DNA of 64,000 bases from Bdellovibrionales bacterium (GTDB taxonomy: Bacteria; Bdellovibrionota; Bdellovibrionia; Bdellovibrionales; UBA1609), in contig JAHDFM010000006.1 in assembly GCA_020628165.1 (NCBI GenBank), positions 31,303 to 95,302 on the forward strand, written 5' to 3'. Below are positions 4,920-59,535 of the stretch, one piece after another. Position numbers and translations under genes: made by a program. The notes below the pieces were generated by a model, which was not told where the DNA came from, did not search any database, and worked only from the letters and a program-made list of their open reading frames with translations. The first letter of the stretch is position 1. Each line of letters starts with the position of its first letter.

Positions 4920-6389
4920 ATGAAAGATTTAACTCAATTGACCGCTAAAGAAATAAATTCAGGAATTAAAAACAAACAATTCAAAGCTAGCGAAGTAATG
5001 TCGAGCTTTTTAGAGCAGATCGATGCTAAAGACAAAGAGCTCAATGCATTCATAACATTGAATGACAAAGCAATGGACCTTGCCAATGCCGTGGATAATA
5101 AAATAGCAAGTGGCGAAGACATTGGTGCTCTCGGTGGTGTGCCCATTGCGATCAAAGACATGCTTTGTACTGAAGGTTTAAAAACCACTGCTGGCTCAAA
5201 GATGTTAGAAAACTTCATACCACCTTATTCAGCGACAGTTGTTAATAAGCTTGAACAAAGTGGTGCAATCGTTATTGGTAAATGCAATCAAGATGAATTT
5301 GCTATGGGTTCGAGTAATGAGACCTCTTATTATGGAAATTGCAAAAACCCTTGGAACACCGATTATGTACCTGGTGGATCGAGTGGTGGCTCAGCAGTTG
5401 CAGTGGCAGCAAGTATGGCACCAATTTCTATTGGAACTGATACGGGAGGCTCTATCAGGCAGCCAGCCAATTTTTGTGGCGTGGTTGGTGTGAAGCCAAC
5501 TTACGGGCGAGTGAGCCGTTATGGCATCATTGCATTTGCTTCCAGCCTTGATCAGGCGGGCCCTTTTTCTAAAACCATTGAAGATTCTGCGATGGTGCTT
5601 GAATCCATTTGCGGTGAAGATCCATTTGATGCCACAAGTTCAGCAAACACGGATTTATCATTTGTAAGTTCACTCAATAACGACCTTAAAGGTCTAAAAG
5701 TTGGTTTGCCGAAAGAATACTCCGACGGAGAAATAGACGGTGAGGTTGCAGCAGCTGTTGAGACCGCCAAAAAACAATTGGCTGACCTCGGTTGTGAGTT
5801 CGTTGAAGTGAGTTTGCCTTACACCAAATATGCCGTGCCAATTTACTACATCATTGCAACGAGTGAAGCTTCGAGTAACTTAGCTAGATACGATGGTGTG
5901 CGCTTTGGCCACAGAGCTGACTTTAAAGATAAACCGGCAGCTGATCTGTTAGATTTTTACTCCAGAAACAGAGGTGAAGGTTTTGGAACTGAAGTCAAAC
6001 GCAGAATCACGTTGGGGACTTTTACACTTTCCAGTGGTTATTATGATGCTTATTACAATAAAGCTTGCCAAGTGCGCCGCTTGCTCCAACAAAACTTCAC
6101 GGACACTTTCAAGCAGTGTGATGTTTTGTTAAGCCCAGTGACGGCAACTCCTGCATTTAAAATAGGTGAAAGAATCGCAGATCCGATCACTATGTATAAG
6201 AATGATATTTTCACAACATCAACTAACCTTGCTGGCCTTCCTGGCTTAAGTCTACCTGTAGCGTTGCACAGTAATGGTTTACCAGTAGGAGTGCAGTTGA
6301 CAGCGGGAGCCTTTCAAGAGTCACACTTGCTCAACATTGCTCACAAATTAGAACAGTCCATAGGTTTTAAAGGAGAGATCCACTCATGA
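4920..6389 (+). CDS. gatA: Asp/Glu-tRNA amidotransferase subunit A
   Basis: Amidase signature GGSSGGSAVAVAA. 489 aa. Confidence 0.97.
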   Translation: MKDLTQLTAKEINSGIKNKQFKASEVMSSFLEQIDAKDKELNAFITLNDKAMDLANAVDNKIASGEDIGALGGVPIAIKDMLCTEGLKTTAGSKMLENFIPPYSATVVNKLEQSGAIVIGKCNQDEFAMGSSNETSYYGNCKNPWNTDYVPGGSSGGSAVAVAASMAPISIGTDTGGSIRQPANFCGVVGVKPTYGRVSRYGIIAFASSLDQAGPFSKTIEDSAMVLESICGEDPFDATSSANTDLSFVSSLNNDLKGLKVGLPKEYSDGEIDGEVAAAVETAKKQLADLGCEFVEVSLPYTKYAVPIYYIIATSEASSNLARYDGVRFGHRADFKDKPAADLLDFYSRNRGEGFGTEVKRRITLGTFTLSSGYYDAYYNKACQVRRLLQQNFTDTFKQCDVLLSPVTATPAFKIGERIADPITMYKNDIFTTSTNLAGLPGLSLPVALHSNGLPVGVQLTAGAFQESHLLNIAHKLEQSIGFKGEIHS

Positions 6390-8791: not shown

Positions 8792-9538
8792 ATGAAAATA
8801 TTGACACTATTGATGCTCATCACTTTTTCTTTTTCAGCAAGCTCAGCCTATCTCATTGAAGATCATTTAAAATTATTATCAAGTCGTAAACGTGCAAAGA
8901 AATGGACGTTAAAAGATTTTGTAACAGGTAAGAAAAAAGCACGAACTTTACCAAAAGTGAATGTGACTCCTAAAAATATTAAAGAAAACCCAAAGTCAGA
9001 ACTTTCACTAGGTGTTGAGTACGGAAACTTGGATGTAGATACAGATGGTGTTGAGGACTCGAACCAAGTATTTAGAGGAAGCTTAACTGCTTTTGTTCGT
9101 TTTGTCGGTGTACTGGGTAATTTTTATTTGAATGAAGACCCTTTTGAAAATCACGGTGATTTGTCATTAGCCCTTCGCTTGGCAGGTAACTCACAACAAA
9201 GCACACACTTAATGCTTTTTTATGGGATCAATAGAACAAAAGAACTGGATAGCGGGACTTTAACCAATATTGAAAACCACATTTGGGGAGGGGAGCTCGT
9301 GCTTTACTTTTTGGATGCATTTGCTGGCTCTTATAAGTTAACCAACATGGAAGAAAACAGAGAGGACAATGTTCTTTTGAGACGTTCAGGTCGCCGCCAT
9401 GAAATCAGAGCCTTTTTAGACTTTCAATACATGAGGCTTTTTGGTTCCCACATTTTAGAAATCTTAGAATTTCAAAACACCACATTTGCTCGAAGAGAAT
9501 CCCGCGGTATCATGGGGGGTGTTTCGATCTTTTTTTAA
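8792..9538 (+). CDS. Secreted hypothetical protein, possible outer-membrane beta-barrel
   Basis: Signal peptide MKILTLLMLITFSFSASSA, alternating-polarity strands, C-terminal ...GGVSIFF. Confidence 0.6.
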   Translation: MKILTLLMLITFSFSASSAYLIEDHLKLLSSRKRAKKWTLKDFVTGKKKARTLPKVNVTPKNIKENPKSELSLGVEYGNLDVDTDGVEDSNQVFRGSLTAFVRFVGVLGNFYLNEDPFENHGDLSLALRLAGNSQQSTHLMLFYGINRTKELDSGTLTNIENHIWGGELVLYFLDAFAGSYKLTNMEENREDNVLLRRSGRRHEIRAFLDFQYMRLFGSHILEILEFQNTTFARRESRGIMGGVSIFF

Positions 9539-9629
9539 GTCTCATATTATTTTGTTTTTGATGACTGGCTTAGCTTTTGCAAACGCAATATAGTCTGTAC
9601 TTTAAAAGTTATTGATTTGGGAGCCATTA

Positions 9630-10904
9630 GTGAAAGAGAAAATTTTTCACAGAGTGTATAAAACTTTGTCTATAAGCTTATGTTTTCTAATGGCAATCCC
9701 TATAGGAGAATATTGCTTTGCTACAGATGGAAATAAAGCAAACCAGACAGACAGTAGCTCTGTAGCTTGTGCTATGAGTGTTCCAGAAAACACTAGTCAT
9801 ATAGTTTATTTAGATACCAATTCAGCAACTGAAGATAATGAACTTTTCTACACTTTTTCTGATATGCAAACTATTTTAGGTCAAAGGCCACAAGATTATA
9901 TTTTTCCAGTACGAGATGAAGATAATTTTATAAATTTTAGATTTCCGAACGTTGTTAAAGATAGGTCGGTAAATCATCCTAGGATTATAAACACACCACT
10001 GATAGAAGGTTCTTCTGAATTGGCCTCAGCAATAGATTTATCATGGGATATGAATGTTTCTGTTAATGGTGCCAGTTTATTGTTTGGTGTTTTTTTGCCA
10101 ACAGCTTATTTTGGTCCTCGACATAAGGATACGAATTATGTTTTTAGTTCAAGTTCGGATGTTGAACATGACCTTGATAGCCGCCCTTATGGCATTTTAC
10201 AATCGACCGGTTTAACCTTGCATACTTCTGGGTATAGAGAATTAATGATATCTCGTTATTTAGAGTATGCTAAAAAAAGAGGAAATAAAAATATATTGTA
10301 TCGTGTGCAGCCGAAGACAGATCATTGGTCACTCATGTTTAGGCAGAGTGATAATAATGAACAGAGGTTGACTATTTTTAATAAATATAAACAGTACCTA
10401 ACTAAAAAACTAGAGGAACAAAATGAAAGTGCAGTTTATTTGAGTGACTTAGTTAATTTGCGAGATCCAACATTGGCTAACTTTGAAAAGCTTGAAGAGC
10501 TTGCTTCTCGATTATCTTTAAGCTCAAGTGTCCCTTATTTCTTTTTAACTCCTGACCCGAGCTGGGCCCACTTTGTAACAACAAATAATAAACATATGAT
10601 ATACGCTTATCAAGTAGACTACTCACAGTTTTCACATACATTTAGAAAAAGAATTTATATAGGTGTAGATAGCAAAGAAGATACTCGTGGTGGCTTAGGA
10701 AGTTTTGAGTTTGTTTTTCCGAGAAGTTCAAAAAGTGATTTTGACGAATTGATAAAAGGTTTTACATTTATGGGGACTGTTAAAAGGGATTTAGTTAAGT
10801 TTACTGTTGATAGGTCTAAGAGTTATCCAGAGGATAGTATAGGATTAGATGGCTGGTTTGAAGATATCCCTTTTGCGGATTTTCAAATGTTTTTAGATAA
10901 TTGA
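9630..10904 (+). CDS. Secreted hypothetical protein
   Basis: Long ORF. I prefer the GTG at 9630, preceded by GGGAG, over the TTG at 9612. N-terminal hydrophobic signal; no recognisable motif. Confidence 0.6.
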   Translation: MKEKIFHRVYKTLSISLCFLMAIPIGEYCFATDGNKANQTDSSSVACAMSVPENTSHIVYLDTNSATEDNELFYTFSDMQTILGQRPQDYIFPVRDEDNFINFRFPNVVKDRSVNHPRIINTPLIEGSSELASAIDLSWDMNVSVNGASLLFGVFLPTAYFGPRHKDTNYVFSSSSDVEHDLDSRPYGILQSTGLTLHTSGYRELMISRYLEYAKKRGNKNILYRVQPKTDHWSLMFRQSDNNEQRLTIFNKYKQYLTKKLEEQNESAVYLSDLVNLRDPTLANFEKLEELASRLSLSSSVPYFFLTPDPSWAHFVTTNNKHMIYAYQVDYSQFSHTFRKRIYIGVDSKEDTRGGLGSFEFVFPRSSKSDFDELIKGFTFMGTVKRDLVKFTVDRSKSYPEDSIGLDGWFEDIPFADFQMFLDN

Positions 10905-11017: not shown

Positions 11018-11473
11018 TTACTCACAATTAAATTTTAAATTGTTCATTTTAAAAATTAATTTATCCCCAACTTTTATCTTGTTGTTTGTAAACCAGCCTT
11101 GATTCACTTCAAGTGCATACTGACTTGGTTTGGCACTTGGGTATGATTTTAATATGTTTTTATCTTTGGTGGATGGTTGCATATCTTGAATATCAACAAT
11201 CACACATCCTTTATTGATGTATGCAATGCTTAAAGGAATGTATGTGTTTTTCATCCAGAAGTTTAAAGTTTGTTCGCTTTCAAAAACAAAAAGCATGCCA
11301 GTGTTTTTTTCCAGCGTTTCTCTAAACATTAATCCTTTATTTTTTTCTTGAGGTGTTATTGCAATTTCAACACCAAGTTCAATGTTGTTTATAACAACCG
11401 TGTTTTTGGGCATGTTTTTTTGCTTGCAACTGAATAAAAAAAGAACAGTGAGGGATAGACTTAAGTACTTCAT
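11018..11473 (-). CDS. DUF192-family lipoprotein
   Basis: GLMFR...GMLFVF...FWMKNT..PL..A...YALE pattern typical of DUF192. Lipobox LFSC after the MKYLSLSL start (an internal ATG of the listed ORF). Confidence 0.8.
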   Translation of the reverse strand: MKYLSLSLTVLFLFSCKQKNMPKNTVVINNIELGVEIAITPQEKNKGLMFRETLEKNTGMLFVFESEQTLNFWMKNTYIPLSIAYINKGCVIVDIQDMQPSTKDKNILKSYPSAKPSQYALEVNQGWFTNNKIKVGDKLIFKMNNLKFNCE

Positions 11474-11655
11474 AATATTTAATTTAATTAAATATATCAG
11501 AAAAGTGTACAAAACTAAGGTCTAGAAGATGAGTCCTGTAAAGAAAATATATAAGCCAATGGACTTGCTTTTACACATATCTGTACTCATCAATAATTCG
11601 TTATGATCTAATTGTTAATGAATGACTTCATAAGCGAACGCAAAGGATTGCAGTT

Positions 11656-13146
11656 ATGATTAGAATATTCTTAGGGTTATTACTTTCAATGTTTTTGGGA
11701 ATGAGTGTCGTCTCTTGTTCTTTTTTTGGATCAGGTTCAGAAGAAACGACGGAAGAGGTTACTGAAGCCGACGAAGATTTTGGCGAAGATGAAGATTACG
11801 ACCCTCTAACAGATGAAGATGAAGATGTTGCGAGTTTAGATTCTGAAAGCGATGAAAAACTTTTTGATGATGGTGACACCGCTGATTTTGATACGGAAGA
11901 AGGCTTTGATGATGATTTTGAAGAAGAAGCCATAGCTGATGCTGGTGATGATATAGAAGAAGTAACAGACGACGAGTTGCTAGATGATTCTGACCCAATT
12001 GACACAGCTAACAATGCATCTGAAGATGTTGAGTTTGAAGATGACACTGATACTTTAGATACAGCTGCATCAACAATTTCGGAAGAAGAGGTCGTTGCTT
12101 CAACAGACGATATTATTGAAGAAGAAAATAATTCACTTGTAGACACAGCTGATTATTCAACAGCAGACTCTTCGTTCAGTGATGGAGCCACAAAATCTTG
12201 GGTGCCGGTCAGAAAAATGCGTGCAGAGCCATTTAATAAAAATGGTGTTCTTGCCAATGCTATTTATATAGTTAGGCAAGGGGATACACTTGGCAGCATC
12301 AGTAGCAAAATCTACGGTAATGATAGAACCAGTGATCTTTTAAAAGTGAATACAACTTTAGGAAATGGTGTCAAAGTTGGAGATAAGGTTTACTACAATT
12401 CTCCACAACGACCAACGGACAGCTCAACGTTACTCACTTACTATGAAGATCTGAATTTAAGCCCGCAGTCTTATACGATACAACCGGGTGAAAATATTAG
12501 AACCGTTTCGAAAAATTTATTAGGTCACAGTTCAAGTTGGAAAGAAGTTTGGGCGACAAACCCAGAAATACAATCTAAATGGACTGTGAGCGAAAGTTAC
12601 AACTTAAGATATTGGTCTGATGGTGGACCAGAAGTTGGCCAGCAAATCGCACAAAACGACTTCACGCCACCACCACAAGAAAATTTCGATCCGCCGCCAC
12701 CACCGCCGCCAGTTGAGGACACTTTCGATGCTCCTCCGCCACCACCACCGATTGATACGGCTGCAGTCCCACCTCCTCCGCCGATTGAGCAGAAATTTGA
12801 TGAGCAATTGCCGCCACCGCCACCTCCCATTGAAGAGCCGGCACCGCCTCCACCACCTCCTGTGGCCAACGTAGCACCGCCGCCGCCTCCACCACCAACG
12901 GTGAATGCGCCGCCACCGCCACCACCTCTTCCAAAAAAGGTTGCCAAGAAAAAAGATTTTAAAAATAAAAAAGGCAAGAACAAGAAGAAGAAAAGGTTAG
13001 CATCGACCGCGGATAAAGATAAAAAGATGATGTTAGGGGCTTCTGCCATTGGATTGTTTGCCCTCGTGTTATTGTTCATCATCTGGCGCAAGAAAAAATC
13101 CAGACGAGCGATCGACTTTAACACCTCGACAACTCAGATTGAATAA
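11656..13146 (+). CDS. Lipoprotein with acidic region, two LysM-like domains, polyproline tracts and a C-terminal TM anchor
   Basis: Lipobox VVSC. D/E-rich aa 27-175. LysM-like YIVRQGDTLGSIS and YTIQPGENIRTVS. Seven P5-P7 tracts (aa 338-425), a K-rich patch, then TM GASAIGLFALVLLFIIW. Confidence 0.85.
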   Translation: MIRIFLGLLLSMFLGMSVVSCSFFGSGSEETTEEVTEADEDFGEDEDYDPLTDEDEDVASLDSESDEKLFDDGDTADFDTEEGFDDDFEEEAIADAGDDIEEVTDDELLDDSDPIDTANNASEDVEFEDDTDTLDTAASTISEEEVVASTDDIIEEENNSLVDTADYSTADSSFSDGATKSWVPVRKMRAEPFNKNGVLANAIYIVRQGDTLGSISSKIYGNDRTSDLLKVNTTLGNGVKVGDKVYYNSPQRPTDSSTLLTYYEDLNLSPQSYTIQPGENIRTVSKNLLGHSSSWKEVWATNPEIQSKWTVSESYNLRYWSDGGPEVGQQIAQNDFTPPPQENFDPPPPPPPVEDTFDAPPPPPPIDTAAVPPPPPIEQKFDEQLPPPPPPIEEPAPPPPPPVANVAPPPPPPPTVNAPPPPPPLPKKVAKKKDFKNKKGKNKKKKRLASTADKDKKMMLGASAIGLFALVLLFIIWRKKKSRRAIDFNTSTTQIE

Positions 13147-13149
13147 AAA

Positions 13150-13183
13150 CAAAAAAACCACTCTCGATGAGTGGTTTTTTTTA
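13150..13183. terminator. Bidirectional rho-independent terminator
   Basis: A-run, stem ccactc/gagtgg, loop tcgat, T-run. Lies between convergent genes. Confidence 0.7.
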
Positions 13184-13211: not shown

Positions 13212-13580
13212 TTACGAAACTTTACTAAATATAGATTGTAGTAAATCTTTCTTAGTTTCTTTGTTTTCATTTACAAAATAAATCAGATCATCAATGAGTT
13301 GCACGTCAGTTCTGTTGAAAGGTAAAAAGTTAACACCGTAACCAACATCATTTTTCCATACGACCTTTGCTTCTATCTTGCGTTGGCGACCACTGACTTC
13401 CATGTGGAATATAAGCTTATCGTTCCTTATGTAGTTGTCATTTGTGGACTGTAAAAAAGCTCCTGTTAGACTGATGTTCTTTAATAAGCCGTTTTCATCT
13501 CTGCGACCATATGTTTTACGAAACCTTACTGGTAGACTCAGTTGAACCCTTGGTGCGACTTCAGAGTTTGCTATATCCAT
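13212..13580 (-). CDS. Single-domain PilZ-like protein
   Basis: 122 aa. NISLTGAFL matches the (D/N)xSxxG half of the PilZ motif. The N-terminal RxxxR half is not clean. Confidence 0.7.
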   Translation of the reverse strand: MDIANSEVAPRVQLSLPVRFRKTYGRRDENGLLKNISLTGAFLQSTNDNYIRNDKLIFHMEVSGRQRKIEAKVVWKNDVGYGVNFLPFNRTDVQLIDDLIYFVNENKETKKDLLQSIFSKVS

Positions 13581-13980: not shown

Positions 13981-15660
13981 ATGGCGAAAGCTACAGAAGA
14001 AGCAGATGCAAAGTCTGTCAAAAAGAAGAAAAAAGTCACTAAGAAAACCACCAAAAAAGTTACTAAAAAGGCCACAAAAAAAGAGCCTGAAGTTGAAATC
14101 GAAGTGGAAGAGGTAAAAGCTGTTGCAGCTCCAGAAGTCAAAGAAGAAATCAAACAAGAGACAAAATCTGACGATGCCTCTGGCGACAAAGATAAAAAAG
14201 AAGGCAAAAAAACCTACAAAGAAGTAAAATACGAAGGGCGCGGCCATAGAGGAAGTGGTGGTAAAAACGATTATCGTCGCAATAATAAAAACGGCAAGCA
14301 CCGCGGATATAGAAATGGTGGAGGCAATGGTAACTCGGGACGATCTGAAAATTCTGAGCCAGAAGTTGAAATTGACTTGAGCGATATTAACTTAACCGAA
14401 GAAGAACAACAAAGTTTAAACTCTAAAAACTTAAAATCTAAGAACATTCAAGAGATCATCGAACTTGGCGTTAAACTAAAGATAGAAAACGCAGCCGGCA
14501 TGAGACGCCAGGACTTAGTCTTTAATGTTTTGAAACGTGCGGCTATGCTGGGAGACATCTACGGAAGTGGTTGTCTAGAAATATTACCTGATGGTTATGG
14601 TTTTTTAAGGTCTCCAGACTACAATTATTTACCAGGACCAGATGATATATATGTAAGTCCTTCACAAATCAGACGTATGGGTCTGCGCACAGGTGACACA
14701 GTTTCTGGAACAGTGAGGCCTCCTAAAGATAATGAAAGATACTTTGCTTTATTAAAACTAGAGACTTTGAATCACGCTCCTCCAGAAAAGAGCAAAGACA
14801 AAGTTTTGTTTGATAACTTAACTCCACTTTACCCGGAACAAAGACTCAACTTAGAGCACAAGCCTAATGAATACACAACGCGTGTGATCGACCTTATGGC
14901 TCCTCTAGGAAAAGGTCAGCGTGCTTTGATCGTGGCCCCACCAAGAACGGGTAAAACGGTCATTATGCAAAACATTGCTCAAGCTCTTTCCGAAAATCAT
15001 CCTGAGGTGAAATTGATAGTATTGCTTATTGATGAGCGACCAGAAGAAGTCACTGATATGTCTAGAAACGTTGACGGTGAAGTGGTGAGTTCTACATTTG
15101 ATGAACCCCCAACTCGTCACGTGCAAGTGGCTGAGATGGTCATTGAAAAAGCTAAGCGCTTGGTTGAGCAAAAGCACGATGTTGTTATTTTACTCGATTC
15201 TATTACACGCTTGGCTCGCGCTTACAACACAGTGGTTCCACCATCTGGAAAGATCTTATCTGGTGGTGTTGATTCCAATGCCCTACACAAACCAAAACGC
15301 TTTTTTGGTGCCGCTAGAAACATCGAAGAGGGCGGCAGTTTAACTATTATTGCAACGGCTCTTGTGGATACTGGCTCTCGTATGGATGAAGTTATTTTTG
15401 AGGAGTTCAAAGGAACTGGTAACGCTGAAATCCACTTGGATCGCAAACTCATGGAAAAAAGAACATTCCCATGTATGGACATCAATAAATCTGGAACAAG
15501 AAAAGAAGATCTTCTTATCGATAAGGGTGATTTAAATCGCTTGTGGATTTTAAGAAAAGTTCTCGCTCCGATGAATGTGGTCGATAGTATGGAATTCTTG
15601 TTAGATAAATTAAAGAATGCCAAAACCAATGATGAATTTATGTCATCAATGTCTGGGTGA
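13981..15660 (+). CDS. rho: Transcription termination factor Rho with a roughly 145-aa low-complexity N-terminal extension
   Basis: Walker [18 protein letters not shown], and the canonical N-terminal helix bundle starting near aa 147. Residues 1-145 are K/E-rich, then RG/N-rich. Confidence 0.97.
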
Positions 15661-31532: not shown

Positions 31533-33008
31533 TTATGAGAAGAGCTCGTCAATGCGGCCACTAATTTCACCTTGAGTGTTTATATTTACACCCAAAGCTT
31601 TGAGAGCTGAAATAAATACCTTTGTTGGGTGTTGTTTGTTGGCGTTAAAGTGTTTTCCAGGCTTTAAACCGCCCATATTTCCCGAAACTAACATAATCAT
31701 ATTTTCAGCAGAGTGAGCATAGTGGGTTTCGTTGGCACTTTGATAAAATTTATCTGAATAATAATTTCGTCCTTTGCCAGCTTCACAAAAGTACACACCG
31801 ACAGTTTGATCATAAAGAGATCCGGTACCAATGTTAGTGTCTTTAAGTTTTTTAATTAAACTGGCATACATATTAATCTGCCAAGCATGGGCTTTGTGCA
31901 ATGCCTCGATGTTTTTTTGTGATGATGAACACGCGGACCCACAACCATGAGTTAGGTTATGAAAATCTGTGTAAACACCAGTGATGGGGCCTGCATTTAA
32001 CCATGGGTGGTTATATGTTGCGACTAAGTTCACCACATTATTAATTCCACAGGACATAGCCATGTAGGCGAGATCAACTGCGACTTTAGCGCGCTCGATT
32101 TCATTGGAATAATTTTCATTCCCGCGAACTTGCTGGCCTCTTTCATTGCGCCACTTATTTATGTCTAAAATATTCCCTCTTGCTTGGTCAGGGCCAGGGT
32201 CTTTCATTTTATAACAGCTTACAATTTCTTTTTGATCGATATTGCTCAACTGAGTTTCTAAGTCTCGCAGTGAAGAGATGTGTCGATCCATTTTAACTTG
32301 GTCTGAACGACCAAGTTTTTTCTTAAATTGATTAAGGTCGTCTTTGACTAAGTCTAAAACTGTACCTCTTTTTTTAAATTCAAATAAGCGACGTTGTTCT
32401 TGAGCTTGATCACTTGAGCTAACATTGCTAACTAAGTCTAGATAAAGTTTGTGAAGGTCAGTTTTGGGCATGAGCTTCACTTTTTTCTTTATACTGACTG
32501 TAGATGTTCCACCAGTATAACCTGAAGCTTGCACACCAATTGTTAGTGGTGTTTTACCACCTGTGCTGTTGGCAAAAATCACATCGGGAGAGTCATAAGA
32601 TTTTATTGCATCAGTTTTAACCTTGCGGCTTCCACTGAGTTGGATGGTATGACAGTTTCCGTGGATGTTAGAAACCCCACCGGGCTTATCTTTGTAAGGC
32701 ATAAATAAATTGGAGGCTATTTGTACAAGGTTACGCACTCCGTGGTCATTGAGGGGTTGCAATGAAATTGGCAAATTTGTTCCAATCGGGCCTGTTGAAT
32801 AGGGCATGAGTACAGGGTCTTTTTGAGACTTATGCCCTGAGGCCAAAGCAATGCCTGAAAAAACAGTGAAGTAATTTTTGGGAATCGCCGAGCCTTGAGC
32901 AAAAGCTTCCCCATGACTGTTTAACATGAGATCTAATATAGGTAGCTTTATTGCTGTTGAATAAAGTCCTCTTAAAAATGTTCTACGGTCTAAAAAATGT
33001 TTTTTCAT
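31533..33008 (-). CDS. DUF1552-family protein with Tat signal
   Basis: MKKHFLDRRTFLRG twin-arginine signal (an internal ATG of the listed ORF). Its start is 1 nt after the upstream stop. Family-typical C-terminal tail. Confidence 0.85.
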   Translation of the reverse strand: MKKHFLDRRTFLRGLYSTAIKLPILDLMLNSHGEAFAQGSAIPKNYFTVFSGIALASGHKSQKDPVLMPYSTGPIGTNLPISLQPLNDHGVRNLVQIASNLFMPYKDKPGGVSNIHGNCHTIQLSGSRKVKTDAIKSYDSPDVIFANSTGGKTPLTIGVQASGYTGGTSTVSIKKKVKLMPKTDLHKLYLDLVSNVSSSDQAQEQRRLFEFKKRGTVLDLVKDDLNQFKKKLGRSDQVKMDRHISSLRDLETQLSNIDQKEIVSCYKMKDPGPDQARGNILDINKWRNERGQQVRGNENYSNEIERAKVAVDLAYMAMSCGINNVVNLVATYNHPWLNAGPITGVYTDFHNLTHGCGSACSSSQKNIEALHKAHAWQINMYASLIKKLKDTNIGTGSLYDQTVGVYFCEAGKGRNYYSDKFYQSANETHYAHSAENMIMLVSGNMGGLKPGKHFNANKQHPTKVFISALKALGVNINTQGEISGRIDELFS

Positions 33009-33009
33009 A

Positions 33010-34692
33010 TTACTTCCAAACAATTTGTTTAAATTCGTTAGACATAATAATGTCGCGAATTAAATTTTTGTAACTCCCATGAAGAGTAAAACTTCGTTGC
33101 AATGATTTTAAATAAACGGGGTTCACTTCTTTAGTATCAAAGCCAAAAGCAAATAAACTGGCTTTTTCAACGAGGCAATTTTGCACAATAGTTCTTTCGT
33201 TATAAAGAGCGTTACTAAAACCAATAAGACCTGTGAACTTGCCAATGTTGTAAATCTCGCCTTCACCATCTATTTGGCAGGACTTATCTAAGTGTTCGAC
33301 AGTGCGGTATTGTCCTAGGTGGTTGAAGTTTTCTAATCCGAGACCAATGCCATCCATTTTTATGTGGCAGCTTGCGCAGGCAGGGTTCGTCATTAAAGCA
33401 AGATGACTGTCTTTCTTACATTTGCCACCGTTAGTTGGTGGCGGAAGTTCATCGAGGTCTACATTTGCAGGAGGCTGTCCAATTTTATCACAAAGAAGTC
33501 CTTTGATAAGGTTATAGCCTCGTTTACTTGGGCTAGAATCTCCAATCTTAGGAAAAGCTGACAAAAATGTAGCGTGAGAAAAAATTCCCATGCGTGGTTG
33601 ATTGGTGGTTTTGTAATTGATTTTATAAAAATCTTTCGACCCCTGTGTTGGAAAGCCATAATGTGCGGCAAGGGCATCATTCACATAGGTATAATCTAAT
33701 TTTAACAGATCGATCCAACTTTTGTTTTGATCTATGATGTGTTCTTTTAAAACCTTCTGAGTTTCCTGAATGGCATTCACTGCAATGACCGGGGGCAATT
33801 GCGATTGATAGTAACCAAACCACATAGAATGAAAATTTAATAGCTGGCGAGTGGCCTCAGGCTTATCAAACAGGCGTTCAATTTCAAAAGCAAGCGTAGA
33901 TGAATCCTGCAAGCTATTGGTGAGCGCTTTGTCGATGAGCTGACTGTCTGCTGGTGCTCCTGTGATTAAATAAGACATTTTGTTAGCAAACTCAATATCA
34001 CTTAAGGTGTATACAGTTCCGCTTACACTGCCTGATCCGTACTCTGTATATACAAACCTTGGAGACTGAAAGGTGAACATTAAAATAGAGTCCACAGCAG
34101 TATCAAAATTTCCAGATTCTTTTGAAAGCTCTATGGCCTTTAAGTTGAGTTGGTTGGTGGTTGAACTTGCTGGACGAGTTGTAAAGGCTTTATCAAACAC
34201 GTTGCTAGTGATTTTTGATAAACAATTTAAGTCAGTTGCGCTTTGGGGGTTACAGACAAAGACTTCTTTTTTAGCTTGATCTGATTTAAATATCTCTTCA
34301 CTCAACCGACGAGCAAAAAACTCAAGGTTATTAATTAGGTTTTCAGAAATAATTTGATCTTTGATAGTATTATTAAAAGGAGAGAGTGTTTCTTCACCTA
34401 AAAAGGACTCTACATTAATGTCGATTTTGAATCCAACTTTGATTTTGTTGTAAAGCTCATTATTAGTAAGCTTTCTGAAGCTAGTTGCTGGCATGACCCC
34501 TTCAGGTGCATTTTTAAAAGCAGGACTGTCGCCTCCGCCAAAGCTTCCATCTGAGCCGTCACCAAATCCACCGGTGTCACCATTGGTTGCGAAGTCTCCG
34601 TTAGCAATAAAACTAGGGGCACAGTTATTATAGGTTCCTATAATAAGAAATAATAGTAAGAAGTGTGTAATGTGTTTTTTCATCGCTAACAT
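33010..34692 (-). CDS. DUF1588/DUF1592-type protein with a single CXXCH motif
   Basis: 560 aa with a signal peptide and NPACASCHIKMDGIGLGLENF. The pairing with a downstream DUF1552 gene is the usual arrangement for these families. Confidence 0.8.
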   Translation of the reverse strand: MLAMKKHITHFLLLFLIIGTYNNCAPSFIANGDFATNGDTGGFGDGSDGSFGGGDSPAFKNAPEGVMPATSFRKLTNNELYNKIKVGFKIDINVESFLGEETLSPFNNTIKDQIISENLINNLEFFARRLSEEIFKSDQAKKEVFVCNPQSATDLNCLSKITSNVFDKAFTTRPASSTTNQLNLKAIELSKESGNFDTAVDSILMFTFQSPRFVYTEYGSGSVSGTVYTLSDIEFANKMSYLITGAPADSQLIDKALTNSLQDSSTLAFEIERLFDKPEATRQLLNFHSMWFGYYQSQLPPVIAVNAIQETQKVLKEHIIDQNKSWIDLLKLDYTYVNDALAAHYGFPTQGSKDFYKINYKTTNQPRMGIFSHATFLSAFPKIGDSSPSKRGYNLIKGLLCDKIGQPPANVDLDELPPPTNGGKCKKDSHLALMTNPACASCHIKMDGIGLGLENFNHLGQYRTVEHLDKSCQIDGEGEIYNIGKFTGLIGFSNALYNERTIVQNCLVEKASLFAFGFDTKEVNPVYLKSLQRSFTLHGSYKNLIRDIIMSNEFKQIVWK

Positions 34693-58702: not shown

Positions 58703-59535
58703 AAGGTCCTCCCTAATTTGATTCACTTTACATACATAGACATAGCGAGAAGCGTGCCAAATTGAGTGTCTCATTTTGAGATACTGATCATATAATTTCA
58801 ATAACTTACAATAACAGGGGTGTAGTCTGTTGTTGAACCCTTTTAGAAAAATAAGACAAAATTGCGCTTGTATAGAGTGTTTACAGTACCCTATTAGTTC
58901 ATATTGATTTTTAGAATTCAATCATACGATGGCAACAATTATTAAATATTAAGGAATTAAAAATTTAAGTAAATCAGAGTTGTAAATTTAATCTATTATT
59001 TTCTGAGAATTTAACTACTGAAGTACTTATAAAGACTTATTTCTAGGGTCAGCTTTTGATTATAATTGCTTAGTAGTGTTCCGTTCATTTAAACTTGTGT
59101 CTCGTTGGAGCTCTAAAGAAGTAAAGTAGCATTTAAAGATTCGAACGCCTAATAACTATGAGAAACTAAAGGCTTATCTTTTTATTTGAGATTGTTAATT
59201 ATAAGAAAATGGATAAAAGCTTTTAGAGTTAAGGAGTAATTGATGATTATAATTTTATATCTATTTTATAAAGTGTCTAAACATTAACTTTAACCCATCT
59301 GTTTTAACAGTTTAAATTATGTATCAATCTAAGATTATTATAAATGAAATTGGGTTTATGATCATTATATTAGGCAATTAGTTAATGTAAGATTATTAGT
59401 GTAAGAAAATGATACGTGTAAAAAACCAACACAAATGTTTCCATCTTGTCTCAAAAATAAAATATTTTTACAAAAACACGACTAAGTTACTGATCTTACA
59501 TTAAGTTTATGAATGGTCTTTAAATTGCTTAAAAC

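Follow-up and report, generated by a model that had tools for sequence, protein, structure and literature searches.

The gene and its family

The open reading frame (ORF) that is the subject of this analysis occupies nucleotides 11656–13146 of the forward strand of a 64,000-nucleotide stretch, here called the window, from the genome of a Bdellovibrionales bacterium (assembly GCA_020628165.1, contig JAHDFM010000006.1, positions 31,303 to 95,302). It begins with ATG, preceded at 8 nucleotides (nt) by AAAGGA, is open over its whole length and specifies a protein of 496 amino acids (aa), an identical copy of which is present in NCBI (P0001). The ORF is a real, uncharacterised envelope-protein gene. 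From its N- to its C-terminus the product, referred to below as the LysM protein, comprises a signal peptide with a lipobox, an acidic arm, two LysM units, a proline-rich linker that ends in a K-rich patch, a transmembrane (TM) helix and a short tail, all on the forward strand. The original prediction for this DNA had proposed a tether fixed at both ends of the chain, and the lipobox (VVSC), D/E-rich region, K-rich patch, C-terminal helix and short tail that it described were all confirmed at the places it gave.

A first search recovered 296 relatives at E ≤ 0.001 among 8000 candidates scored, and an exhaustive search with a profile of the protein core revealed 454 clusters (50% identity) at E ≤ 1e-30 and 880 at E ≤ 1e-10; among the best 150 of these core-profile matches, nearly all proteins have 300–750 aa, with the core at an equal relative position. 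Using one genome per GTDB species, 212 relatives were found, 80 of which were kept, and the counts of loci given below rest on those 80. All are assigned to Bdellovibrionales, Pseudobdellovibrionaceae, Bdellovibrionia or Bdellovibrionota metagenome-assembled genomes (MAGs), bar three that carry the older labels Proteobacteria/Pseudomonadota; the closest GTDB relative shows 60% identity to the window protein. With a Bdellovibrio MAG as the seed, a third search added cultured strains, namely Bdellovibrio bacteriovorus W (BDW_00265), another B. bacteriovorus (ACES2L_00295), B. svalbardensis and Bdellovibrio sp. NC01. The relatives are named "hypothetical", "LysM peptidoglycan-binding domain-containing" or "LPXTG cell wall anchor domain-containing" in their sources. 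The family is large, unnamed, single-copy and order-wide in the Bdellovibrionales, and is built from known parts in an unusual architecture.

Of the 352 relatives with a full core, 317 carry both anchors, namely a C-terminal helix and, at the N-terminus, a hydrophobic segment that runs up to [GAS]-Cys; the remaining 35, several of them truncated or partial, lack a detectable anchor. Together with the invariance of the cysteine described below, this upholds the proposal that the protein and its orthologs are anchored at both ends.

Architecture of the protein

The signal peptide (aa 1–21; nucleotides 11656–11718) carries R3 in its n-region, followed by a hydrophobic core and the lipobox V18-V-S-C21, in which Cys21 is predicted to be the lipidated first mature residue. 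The window protein conforms to the lipoprotein pattern [LVI][ASTVI][GAS]C with the Cys at position 15–35 and K/R in the n-region, and Cys21 is invariant in an alignment of the protein with its homologs (A1; 36/36). A strict PROSITE-type lipobox pattern was found in 65 of 120 sequences. The full-length sequences that were inspected among the others retain a hydrophobic core and, behind it, [GAS]-C, the residue at -3/-4 being N, H or P; the remaining misses are truncated or mis-started sequences. Export of the chain and lipidation of Cys21 would follow from this invariant lipobox. The residues after the cysteine (+2/+3) are S/T-S/F in the family, and Asp was never seen; by the +2 rule of E. coli, the absence of Asp behind the Cys would direct the lipid end to the outer membrane.

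The lipobox is followed by an acidic arm of 156 aa (aa 22–177; 11719–12186) containing 67 D/E residues and one K/R (43% acidic). An AlphaFold2 model built on 36 homologs gave this arm a predicted local distance difference test score (pLDDT) below 50, as for a disordered region. Its sequence is unconserved across the family, and what is kept is its length (147 ± 23 aa) and its strong acidity (net charge -16 to -100). With a net charge of -66, the arm of the window protein is unusually acidic when compared with the family median of -38.

The central part of the protein (aa 183–322; 12202–12621) is a compact tandem-LysM module, recognised by means of Pfam, profiles of PDB chains, AlphaFold2 and Foldseek. 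It consists of a beta-hairpin, LysM1 (aa 202–247; 12259–12396), a conserved linker with the motif NSPxRPxD..LTYYED, and LysM2 (aa 271–320; 12466–12615). Over aa 204–244 LysM1 scores above the gathering threshold of Pfam PF01476 (23.9 versus 20.9 bits), and LysM2 is faint as a single sequence (E = 0.23 to LysM2_NFP). A core profile (A3) built from 33 relatives was compared with LysM chains in the PDB; its positions 23–69 match the LysM of Kbp, and positions 86–147, which form the LysM2 half, match those of phage gp61 (E = 2.7e-5) and TsaP (3jc8; E = 0.004). In the AlphaFold2 model aa 190–320, with pLDDT values of 91–98, fold into a short beta-hairpin and two beta-alpha-alpha-beta units, the elements of LysM2 being strands at aa 271–274 and 316–319 and helices at aa 281–289 and 292–301 (pLDDT >90). 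The NSPxRPxD..LTYYED segment joins both units into a single compact module, and the regions flanking the module are predicted to be disordered. The best Foldseek matches in the PDB are tandem-LysM structures, namely the 2xLysM of Thermus thermophilus NlpC/P60 (4uz2), 8rhf, the ectodomains of plant LysM receptors, and MltD. In the family alignment the LysM core has 21 invariant columns. Of the two LysM-like segments originally proposed, then, the first is established by the Pfam hidden Markov model and the second by the family profile, AlphaFold2 and Foldseek. The established function of LysM is the binding of wall glycan, and by analogy the tandem module would bind the glycan strands of the wall.

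The proline-rich linker (aa 338–424; 12667–12927) contains the tripeptide PPP at aa 338–340 and exactly the seven runs of 5–7 prolines that had been counted there at the outset: aa 346–352 (7 residues), 360–365 (6), 372–376 (5), 386–391 (6), 397–402 (6), 408–414 (7) and 419–424 (6). Such runs far exceed chance, for when the protein was shuffled 2000 times, no more than 21 shuffles produced even one run of at least five prolines. Expansion of a DNA repeat was considered as the origin of the tracts and rejected, since there are only two 2-copy 9-nt repeats and no long tandem repeats, and the proline codons are mixed. Across the family the linker measures 107 ± 16 aa, with a proline fraction of 0–0.5, 0–8 tracts of at least four prolines and 0–30 PPP triplets; the 30 overlapping triplets of the window protein are the maximum among 317 complete relatives. 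Dependence on EF-P is a fair inference from so many PPP triplets. One deep clade (L022, L031, L033, L041, L046, L047, L053 and L062) has a linker that is acidic and proline-poor. With this clade, and with tract numbers ranging down to zero, the polyproline rod of the original prediction cannot count as a defining part.

The prolines are followed by the K-rich patch (aa 426–457; 12931–13026), which belongs to a somewhat wider stretch, aa 426–461, with 17 K/R and 3 D/E. Only the small clade of the window protein (P0001–P0005) has the patch, and it is in this clade that the N-terminal arm is unusually acidic. The last 35 residues of the linker before the TM helix carry a charge of +14 in the window protein versus a family median of -3. 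The patch brings more positive charge to the predicted periplasmic side of the helix than there is on the cytoplasmic one, contrary to the positive-inside rule; the relatives, in which an acidic D-P-D-Q-T-M is usual before the helix, are free of this charge conflict. The patch may pair with the unusually acidic N-terminal arm or with the head groups of anionic lipids.

The C-terminal TM helix (aa 458–477, MMLGASAIGLFALVLLFIIW; 13027–13086) has a best 19-residue Kyte-Doolittle window of 2.63. AlphaFold2 places a helix at aa 453–484, and a C-terminal helix is present in every complete relative. It is succeeded by the predicted cytoplasmic end of the protein (13087–13143), made up of a basic stop-transfer cluster, RKKKSRR (aa 478–484), and the tail AIDFNTSTTQIE-COOH (aa 485–496). 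Family-wide the helix is preceded by an acidic "DPDQTM" and followed by RKKR, for which reason it is read as an anchor that stops transfer and leaves the tail in the cytoplasm; the charge pattern fits a protein the bulk of which is periplasmic, and the expectation that this bulk would not prove cytoplasmic is thereby sustained.

The cytoplasmic C-terminal tail is the most conserved feature outside the LysM module, and it was missed by the original prediction. Its consensus, xDFxTxTxTQIE-COOH, follows the helix and the RKKR cluster and is conserved as strongly as the LysM core. Variants include ...NFSQTQV, ...MNTHTQI, ...DLGQTQV, ...MDNTHVGT (in the genus Bdellovibrio) and ...FDFGGETTIEExQTKTQIDL, and one clade ends in ...DFDYTAANFELD in place of the usual tail. 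Even in clades that have otherwise changed completely outside the LysM core, the "DF" and a T-(Q/H)-(I/V) close to the end persist, and the tail is retained in the deep clade that lacks the proline linker. A profile of the tail module (local hmmsearch) found one copy per locus, always in the LysM gene, in the window and the 80 loci. When a profile (A2) covering the ~47 C-terminal residues was run against 5.8 billion proteins to find the module elsewhere, the only matches were three short fragments, known members being missed as well, so that this search carries no information. The tail may be a docking peptide for a cytoplasmic partner, because it is conserved and a passive anchor would not need such conservation. 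We take it to resemble a C-terminal beta-strand-addition or PDZ-type ligand (T-x-I/V).

Genomic neighbourhood and the Bdellovibrio bacteriovorus ortholog

The gene lies in a block with the order ligA (-), gatA, gatB, ppx, DUF192 and the LysM gene (+), PilZ (-), and rho, prfA, prmC and murA (+). This order is almost invariant in the 80 loci, contig ends allowed for, and it recurs in a complete 3.77-Mb Bdellovibrio genome with the LysM gene at 56.5–57.9 kb and the convergent PilZ gene at 57.9–58.3 kb. Because it is located in a housekeeping block in 80 loci, the LysM gene is a core cellular gene, neither mobile nor phage. No phage-like genes were found near it, and the PHROG matches of the protein are confined to LysM.

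The convergent neighbour (13212–13580, minus strand) specifies a PilZ-domain protein of 122 aa (Pfam PilZ, E = 1e-10). PilZ was matched in 60 of the 80 loci and is adjacent to the LysM gene in most of those; the ortholog in a Bdellovibrio locus (L083) lies at 5425–5793 on the minus strand. The protein keeps the motif N-I-S-L-T-G, and its canonical RxxxR is not intact (..SEVAPRVQL.., and ..KVPAPRTPL.. in Bdellovibrio), which may bear on its binding of c-di-GMP. The adjacency of the PilZ gene was rejected as evidence for a partner of the tail, since the loci without an adjacent PilZ gene form one clade with mixed tails (some ending in ...TQI) and no coupling was seen. In B. bacteriovorus HD100 the PilZ protein of this region is Bd0064 (PMC6606864), of which the window's PilZ protein is probably the ortholog and which serves as a diffuse cytoplasmic label in that species; PilZ is part of the context here and not a demonstrated partner of the LysM protein.

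Since the PilZ neighbour corresponds to Bd0064 and the order of the locus matches, the LysM gene is very probably the ortholog of Bd0063. The "Bd0063-Bd0064 intergenic locus", at nt 58,741/58,742 of HD100, is a standard neutral integration site (PMC8445325, PMC12448681). It falls in a short convergent terminator region right after the codons of the conserved tail (compare L083, CP168968.1 56,518–58,310). No functional study of Bd0063 was found in the literature, where the gene is mentioned only as a flank of the integration site. Published strains with insertions at this site show normal predation.

In the window the terminator region contains a bidirectional hairpin with a 13-bp stem and T runs on both sides (13151–13181), between the LysM gene and the convergent PilZ gene. 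A promoter-like -35/-10 pair, TTTACA-16-AATAAT (11570–11597, plus strand; 10/12 matches), is weak evidence, as shuffles show such sites no less often. A 175-aa poly-Gly ORF on the minus strand (12597–13124) was dismissed as the mirror image of the proline tracts and is no gene.

Upstream, a DUF192 (COG1430) protein is specified at 11018–11512 on the minus strand (Pfam, E = 7e-32). DUF192 was found in 67 of the 80 loci; in most relatives its gene immediately precedes the LysM gene and has the same orientation, while the window and its two nearest relatives, L001 and L002, have it inverted. The DUF192 protein has a lipobox of its own (LFSC), and its gene overlaps ppx by 35 nt in Bdellovibrio. 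It could be a periplasmic partner of the LysM protein. Two lineage-specific ORFs (8792–9538 and 9612–10904, both plus strand) stand between ppx and DUF192. The former was matched only in L001 and L002 and the latter in none of the 80 loci, and neither matched a Pfam, NCBIfam or PHROG family. The product of 8792–9538 has a signal peptide and an end, ...GGVSIFF, like that of an outer-membrane beta-barrel. Downstream, Rho (13981–15660, plus strand) bears an N-terminal extension of ~150 aa rich in K, E, G and N, with Pfam Rho_N starting at aa 151, and the Rho proteins of the Bdellovibrio relatives (L081–L088) are likewise long, at 581–584 aa. Elsewhere in the window, DUF1552 (HXXSHH) and DUF1588/DUF1592 proteins are specified by adjacent genes at 31533–34692 (minus strand); these are unrelated to the LysM protein.

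A candidate envelope tether and its alternatives

On the evidence of sequence and structure models, we give a probability of about one half to the reading that the LysM protein is a Bdellovibrionales-specific envelope protein fixed at both ends, with peptidoglycan binding in the middle, which acts as a tether or spacer and presents a docking peptide. The lipoprotein signal peptide would direct the chain through Sec and Cys21 would be lipidated, after which the C-terminal helix would stop transfer and remain in the inner membrane, leaving ~19 residues in the cytoplasm. In the periplasm the tandem-LysM module would bind glycan strands of the wall, with the acidic arm (~150 aa) extending to the lipid anchor and the linker (~105 aa, mostly proline-rich) to the inner-membrane helix, and the tail xDFxTxTxTQIE-COOH would dock a cytoplasmic partner. 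In effect, a position on the peptidoglycan would be coupled both with the inner membrane and with a component of the cell interior.

Because the arm lengths are conserved, the arms may hold the LysM module at set distances from the anchors. The coefficient of variation is 0.15 for both the N-terminal arm and the linker, which is narrow for regions that cannot be aligned. This lends some support to the spacer or ruler function first suggested for the protein; the rigid polyproline rod on which that suggestion had also relied is not a defining part. If the Lol system carried the lipid end to the outer membrane, all three layers of the envelope would be stapled together, with the lipid in the outer membrane, LysM on the peptidoglycan and the helix in the inner membrane; the arms would set the distances between layers and the tail would report this geometry, or fix it, to a partner of the cytoskeletal or polarity type. 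We regard this fuller, three-layer form as doubtful.

Proteins of related layout are known. Spanins are small proteins without LysM, encoded in phage lysis cassettes, that disrupt the outer membrane at lysis. The unimolecular spanin gp11 of phage T1 combines an N-terminal outer-membrane lipoprotein signal with a C-terminal TM domain and bridges both membranes (PMC6139136). The LysM protein has the same combination at the level of sequence only, and topology is all that the two have in common: in place of a lysis cassette with holin and endolysin, its neighbours in the 80 loci are gatAB, ppx, DUF192, PilZ, rho, prfA, prmC and murA, and no spanin PHROG matched the window protein. Lpp, Pal, OmpA and OutB/GspB also connect a membrane with the peptidoglycan, and the length of Lpp sets the spacing between outer membrane and wall. 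Unlike the LysM protein, they employ a covalent Lys or OmpA-like domains in place of LysM, have one membrane anchor each and possess no conserved cytoplasmic tail. OutB is an inner-membrane protein attached to the wall (PMC12274547, PMC9239104). A FliO with a LysM domain (PMC12403147) was considered and set aside, as neither its cytoplasmic beta-sheet core nor its flagellar context is applicable.

Several observations weigh against a tether or spacer with this topology. Because one clade lacks the polyproline linker, the rod is dispensable and rigidity is not essential to the function of the family. The topology itself rests on motif rules and charge patterns, and in the window protein the positive-inside rule is ambiguous, with 17 K/R in aa 426–461 before or at the start of the helix versus 6 in the RKKKSRR that follows it. 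Placement of the lipid end in the outer membrane is a guess, as the +2 rule is that of E. coli and may not hold in Bdellovibrionota. A trade-off between the two arms was sought as a test of the ruler, in the form of a negative correlation of their lengths; they correlate weakly and positively instead (Spearman 0.28, uncorrected for phylogeny), so that the models were not told apart, and the positive correlation accords at least as well with a hairpin whose two ends both lie in the inner membrane. No partner of the tail was found. Loss of PilZ from the neighbourhood was a single event that does not track the type of tail, and the PilZ ortholog, as Bd0064-mCherry, is reported to be diffuse in the cytoplasm of B. 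bacteriovorus (PMC6606864). Finally, synteny of the whole block carries no specific information on function, and since the entire block is syntenic, adjacency by itself is no argument for a functional link.

The alternative that survives best, unlikely in our estimation, is a positional landmark or hub like FimV/HubP, in which the LysM pair would read a particular kind of wall (e.g. polar or septal, stem-poor glycan), the tail would recruit a polarity, pilus or division factor, and tethering would be secondary. A hub would accord with a tail whose conservation equals that of the LysM core and which persists where the proline linker has been lost. It would also accord with the conserved PilZ neighbour and with the strong polarisation of Bdellovibrio cells, and the combination of LysM, one helix and an acidic region does recall FimV/HubP. 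Indeed FimV, HubP and TspA share with the LysM protein a periplasmic LysM, one membrane helix, a long, very acidic region of low complexity and a proposed link from the wall to the cytoplasm. In FimV/HubP, however, the acidic region, the TPR and the C-terminal motifs are cytoplasmic and large, whereas the acidic arm of the LysM protein is periplasmic and its cytoplasmic part amounts to only ~19 aa; the latter protein also has a lipobox, and its two LysM units are packed as one module. No TPR or FimV motif was found with Pfam or NCBIfam, the models of the FimV core and C-terminus giving no match to the window protein at E ≤ 1, and the PilZ neighbour is diffuse in B. bacteriovorus, as noted above. 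The LysM protein therefore cannot be counted as a member of the FimV/HubP type, as had been suggested. TsaP, part of the type IV pilus machine and present in related predatory and gliding bacteria, provides a LysM that is matched by the LysM2 half of the family profile. The likeness is confined to LysM, for TsaP is soluble in the periplasm, contains domains that bind the secretin, and has no lipobox, helix or tail.

Quite improbable is a regulator of wall remodelling or division, an "inverted FtsN/DamX" or an NlpD/DipM-like LysM lipoprotein without LytM, which would sense remodelled glycan and signal through its tail to the divisome or elongasome. The layout is that of FtsN reversed: in FtsN, DamX and DedD, as in the LysM protein, a single helix connects a short cytoplasmic peptide, which is conserved, to a long disordered linker rich in proline and a domain that binds the wall. 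They differ in the order of these elements along the chain and in having SPOR rather than LysM, and the LysM protein adds the acidic arm and the lipid anchor; no Pfam match to SPOR (PF05036) was detected in the window protein. NlpD, ActS (YgeR) and DipM resemble it in the lipobox (NlpD and ActS), a disordered region and wall binding through a periplasmic LysM. They act, however, through LytM (M23) and are without a C-terminal helix or cytoplasmic tail. The window protein shows a weak, sub-threshold likeness to MltD and ActS over LysM parts only (for ActS, E = 0.12) and no match to LytM/Peptidase_M23, and neither amidase nor transglycosylase domains were found in it. The presence of murA within the same conserved block is in keeping with a role in the wall, but the block consists mostly of translation and transcription genes, and no link of the LysM gene to fts or mre genes was found.

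We consider it very improbable that the C-terminal helix and basic cluster form a cleaved sorting signal of the sortase, exosortase or rhombosortase kind, which would make the mature protein a simple wall-binding lipoprotein. The idea draws on the name "LPXTG cell wall anchor domain-containing protein", applied by NCBI to Bdellovibrio orthologs, on a TIGR01167 score of 17 bits against a cut-off of 15.9, and on weak matches to several CTERM sorting models. These models align with the helix and the basic part alone (positions 9–34 of TIGR01167) and not with a signature motif, and the NCBI name (P0245, P0249 and others) arises artefactually from TIGR01167. Among 317 relatives, 3 have an LPxTG-like motif, and LPx[TSA]G does not occur in the window protein, which was accordingly rejected as an LPXTG sortase substrate. 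The conserved tail of 12–20 aa after the basic cluster (12 aa in the window protein) is absent from sorting signals. The module is found once per locus, with no second copy in the window or the 80 loci; whole genomes were not searched.

A TonB/TolA-like force transducer, whose rigid proline rod would carry the energy of an inner-membrane motor to the wall or outer membrane, is nearly refuted: a periplasmic segment rich in proline does adjoin an inner-membrane helix, but TonB is defined by an N-terminal signal-anchor helix and TonB_C (PF03544), whereas the helix here is C-terminal and the polarity thus reversed, no TonB_C or TolA domain was matched in Pfam, exbBD and tolQR are absent from the conserved neighbourhood, one clade has no proline segment, and the likeness comes down to proline-richness. 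Membership of the TonB type, also put forward in the original prediction, falls with these results, and a paper on TonB/TolA evolution (PMC12204202) contained nothing relevant to the architecture of the LysM protein.

The reading as a doubly fixed, wall-binding tether or spacer bears on a poorly covered part of envelope biology. In diderm bacteria the fixed distances between inner membrane, wall and outer membrane are known in detail for few proteobacterial tethers (Lpp, Pal, OmpA and Tol). Bdellovibrio-type predators deform strongly on entry into their prey, and their envelope tethers are largely unstudied. Because the gene is single-copy, order-wide, syntenic with housekeeping genes and very probably Bd0063 in the genetically tractable B. 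bacteriovorus, the hypothesis is directly testable there, by CRISPR interference (CRISPRi) and imaging. The three-layer staple, if true, would represent a new class of envelope-architecture protein, a "spanin-like ruler", and might bear on the way in which these bacteria squeeze into their prey.

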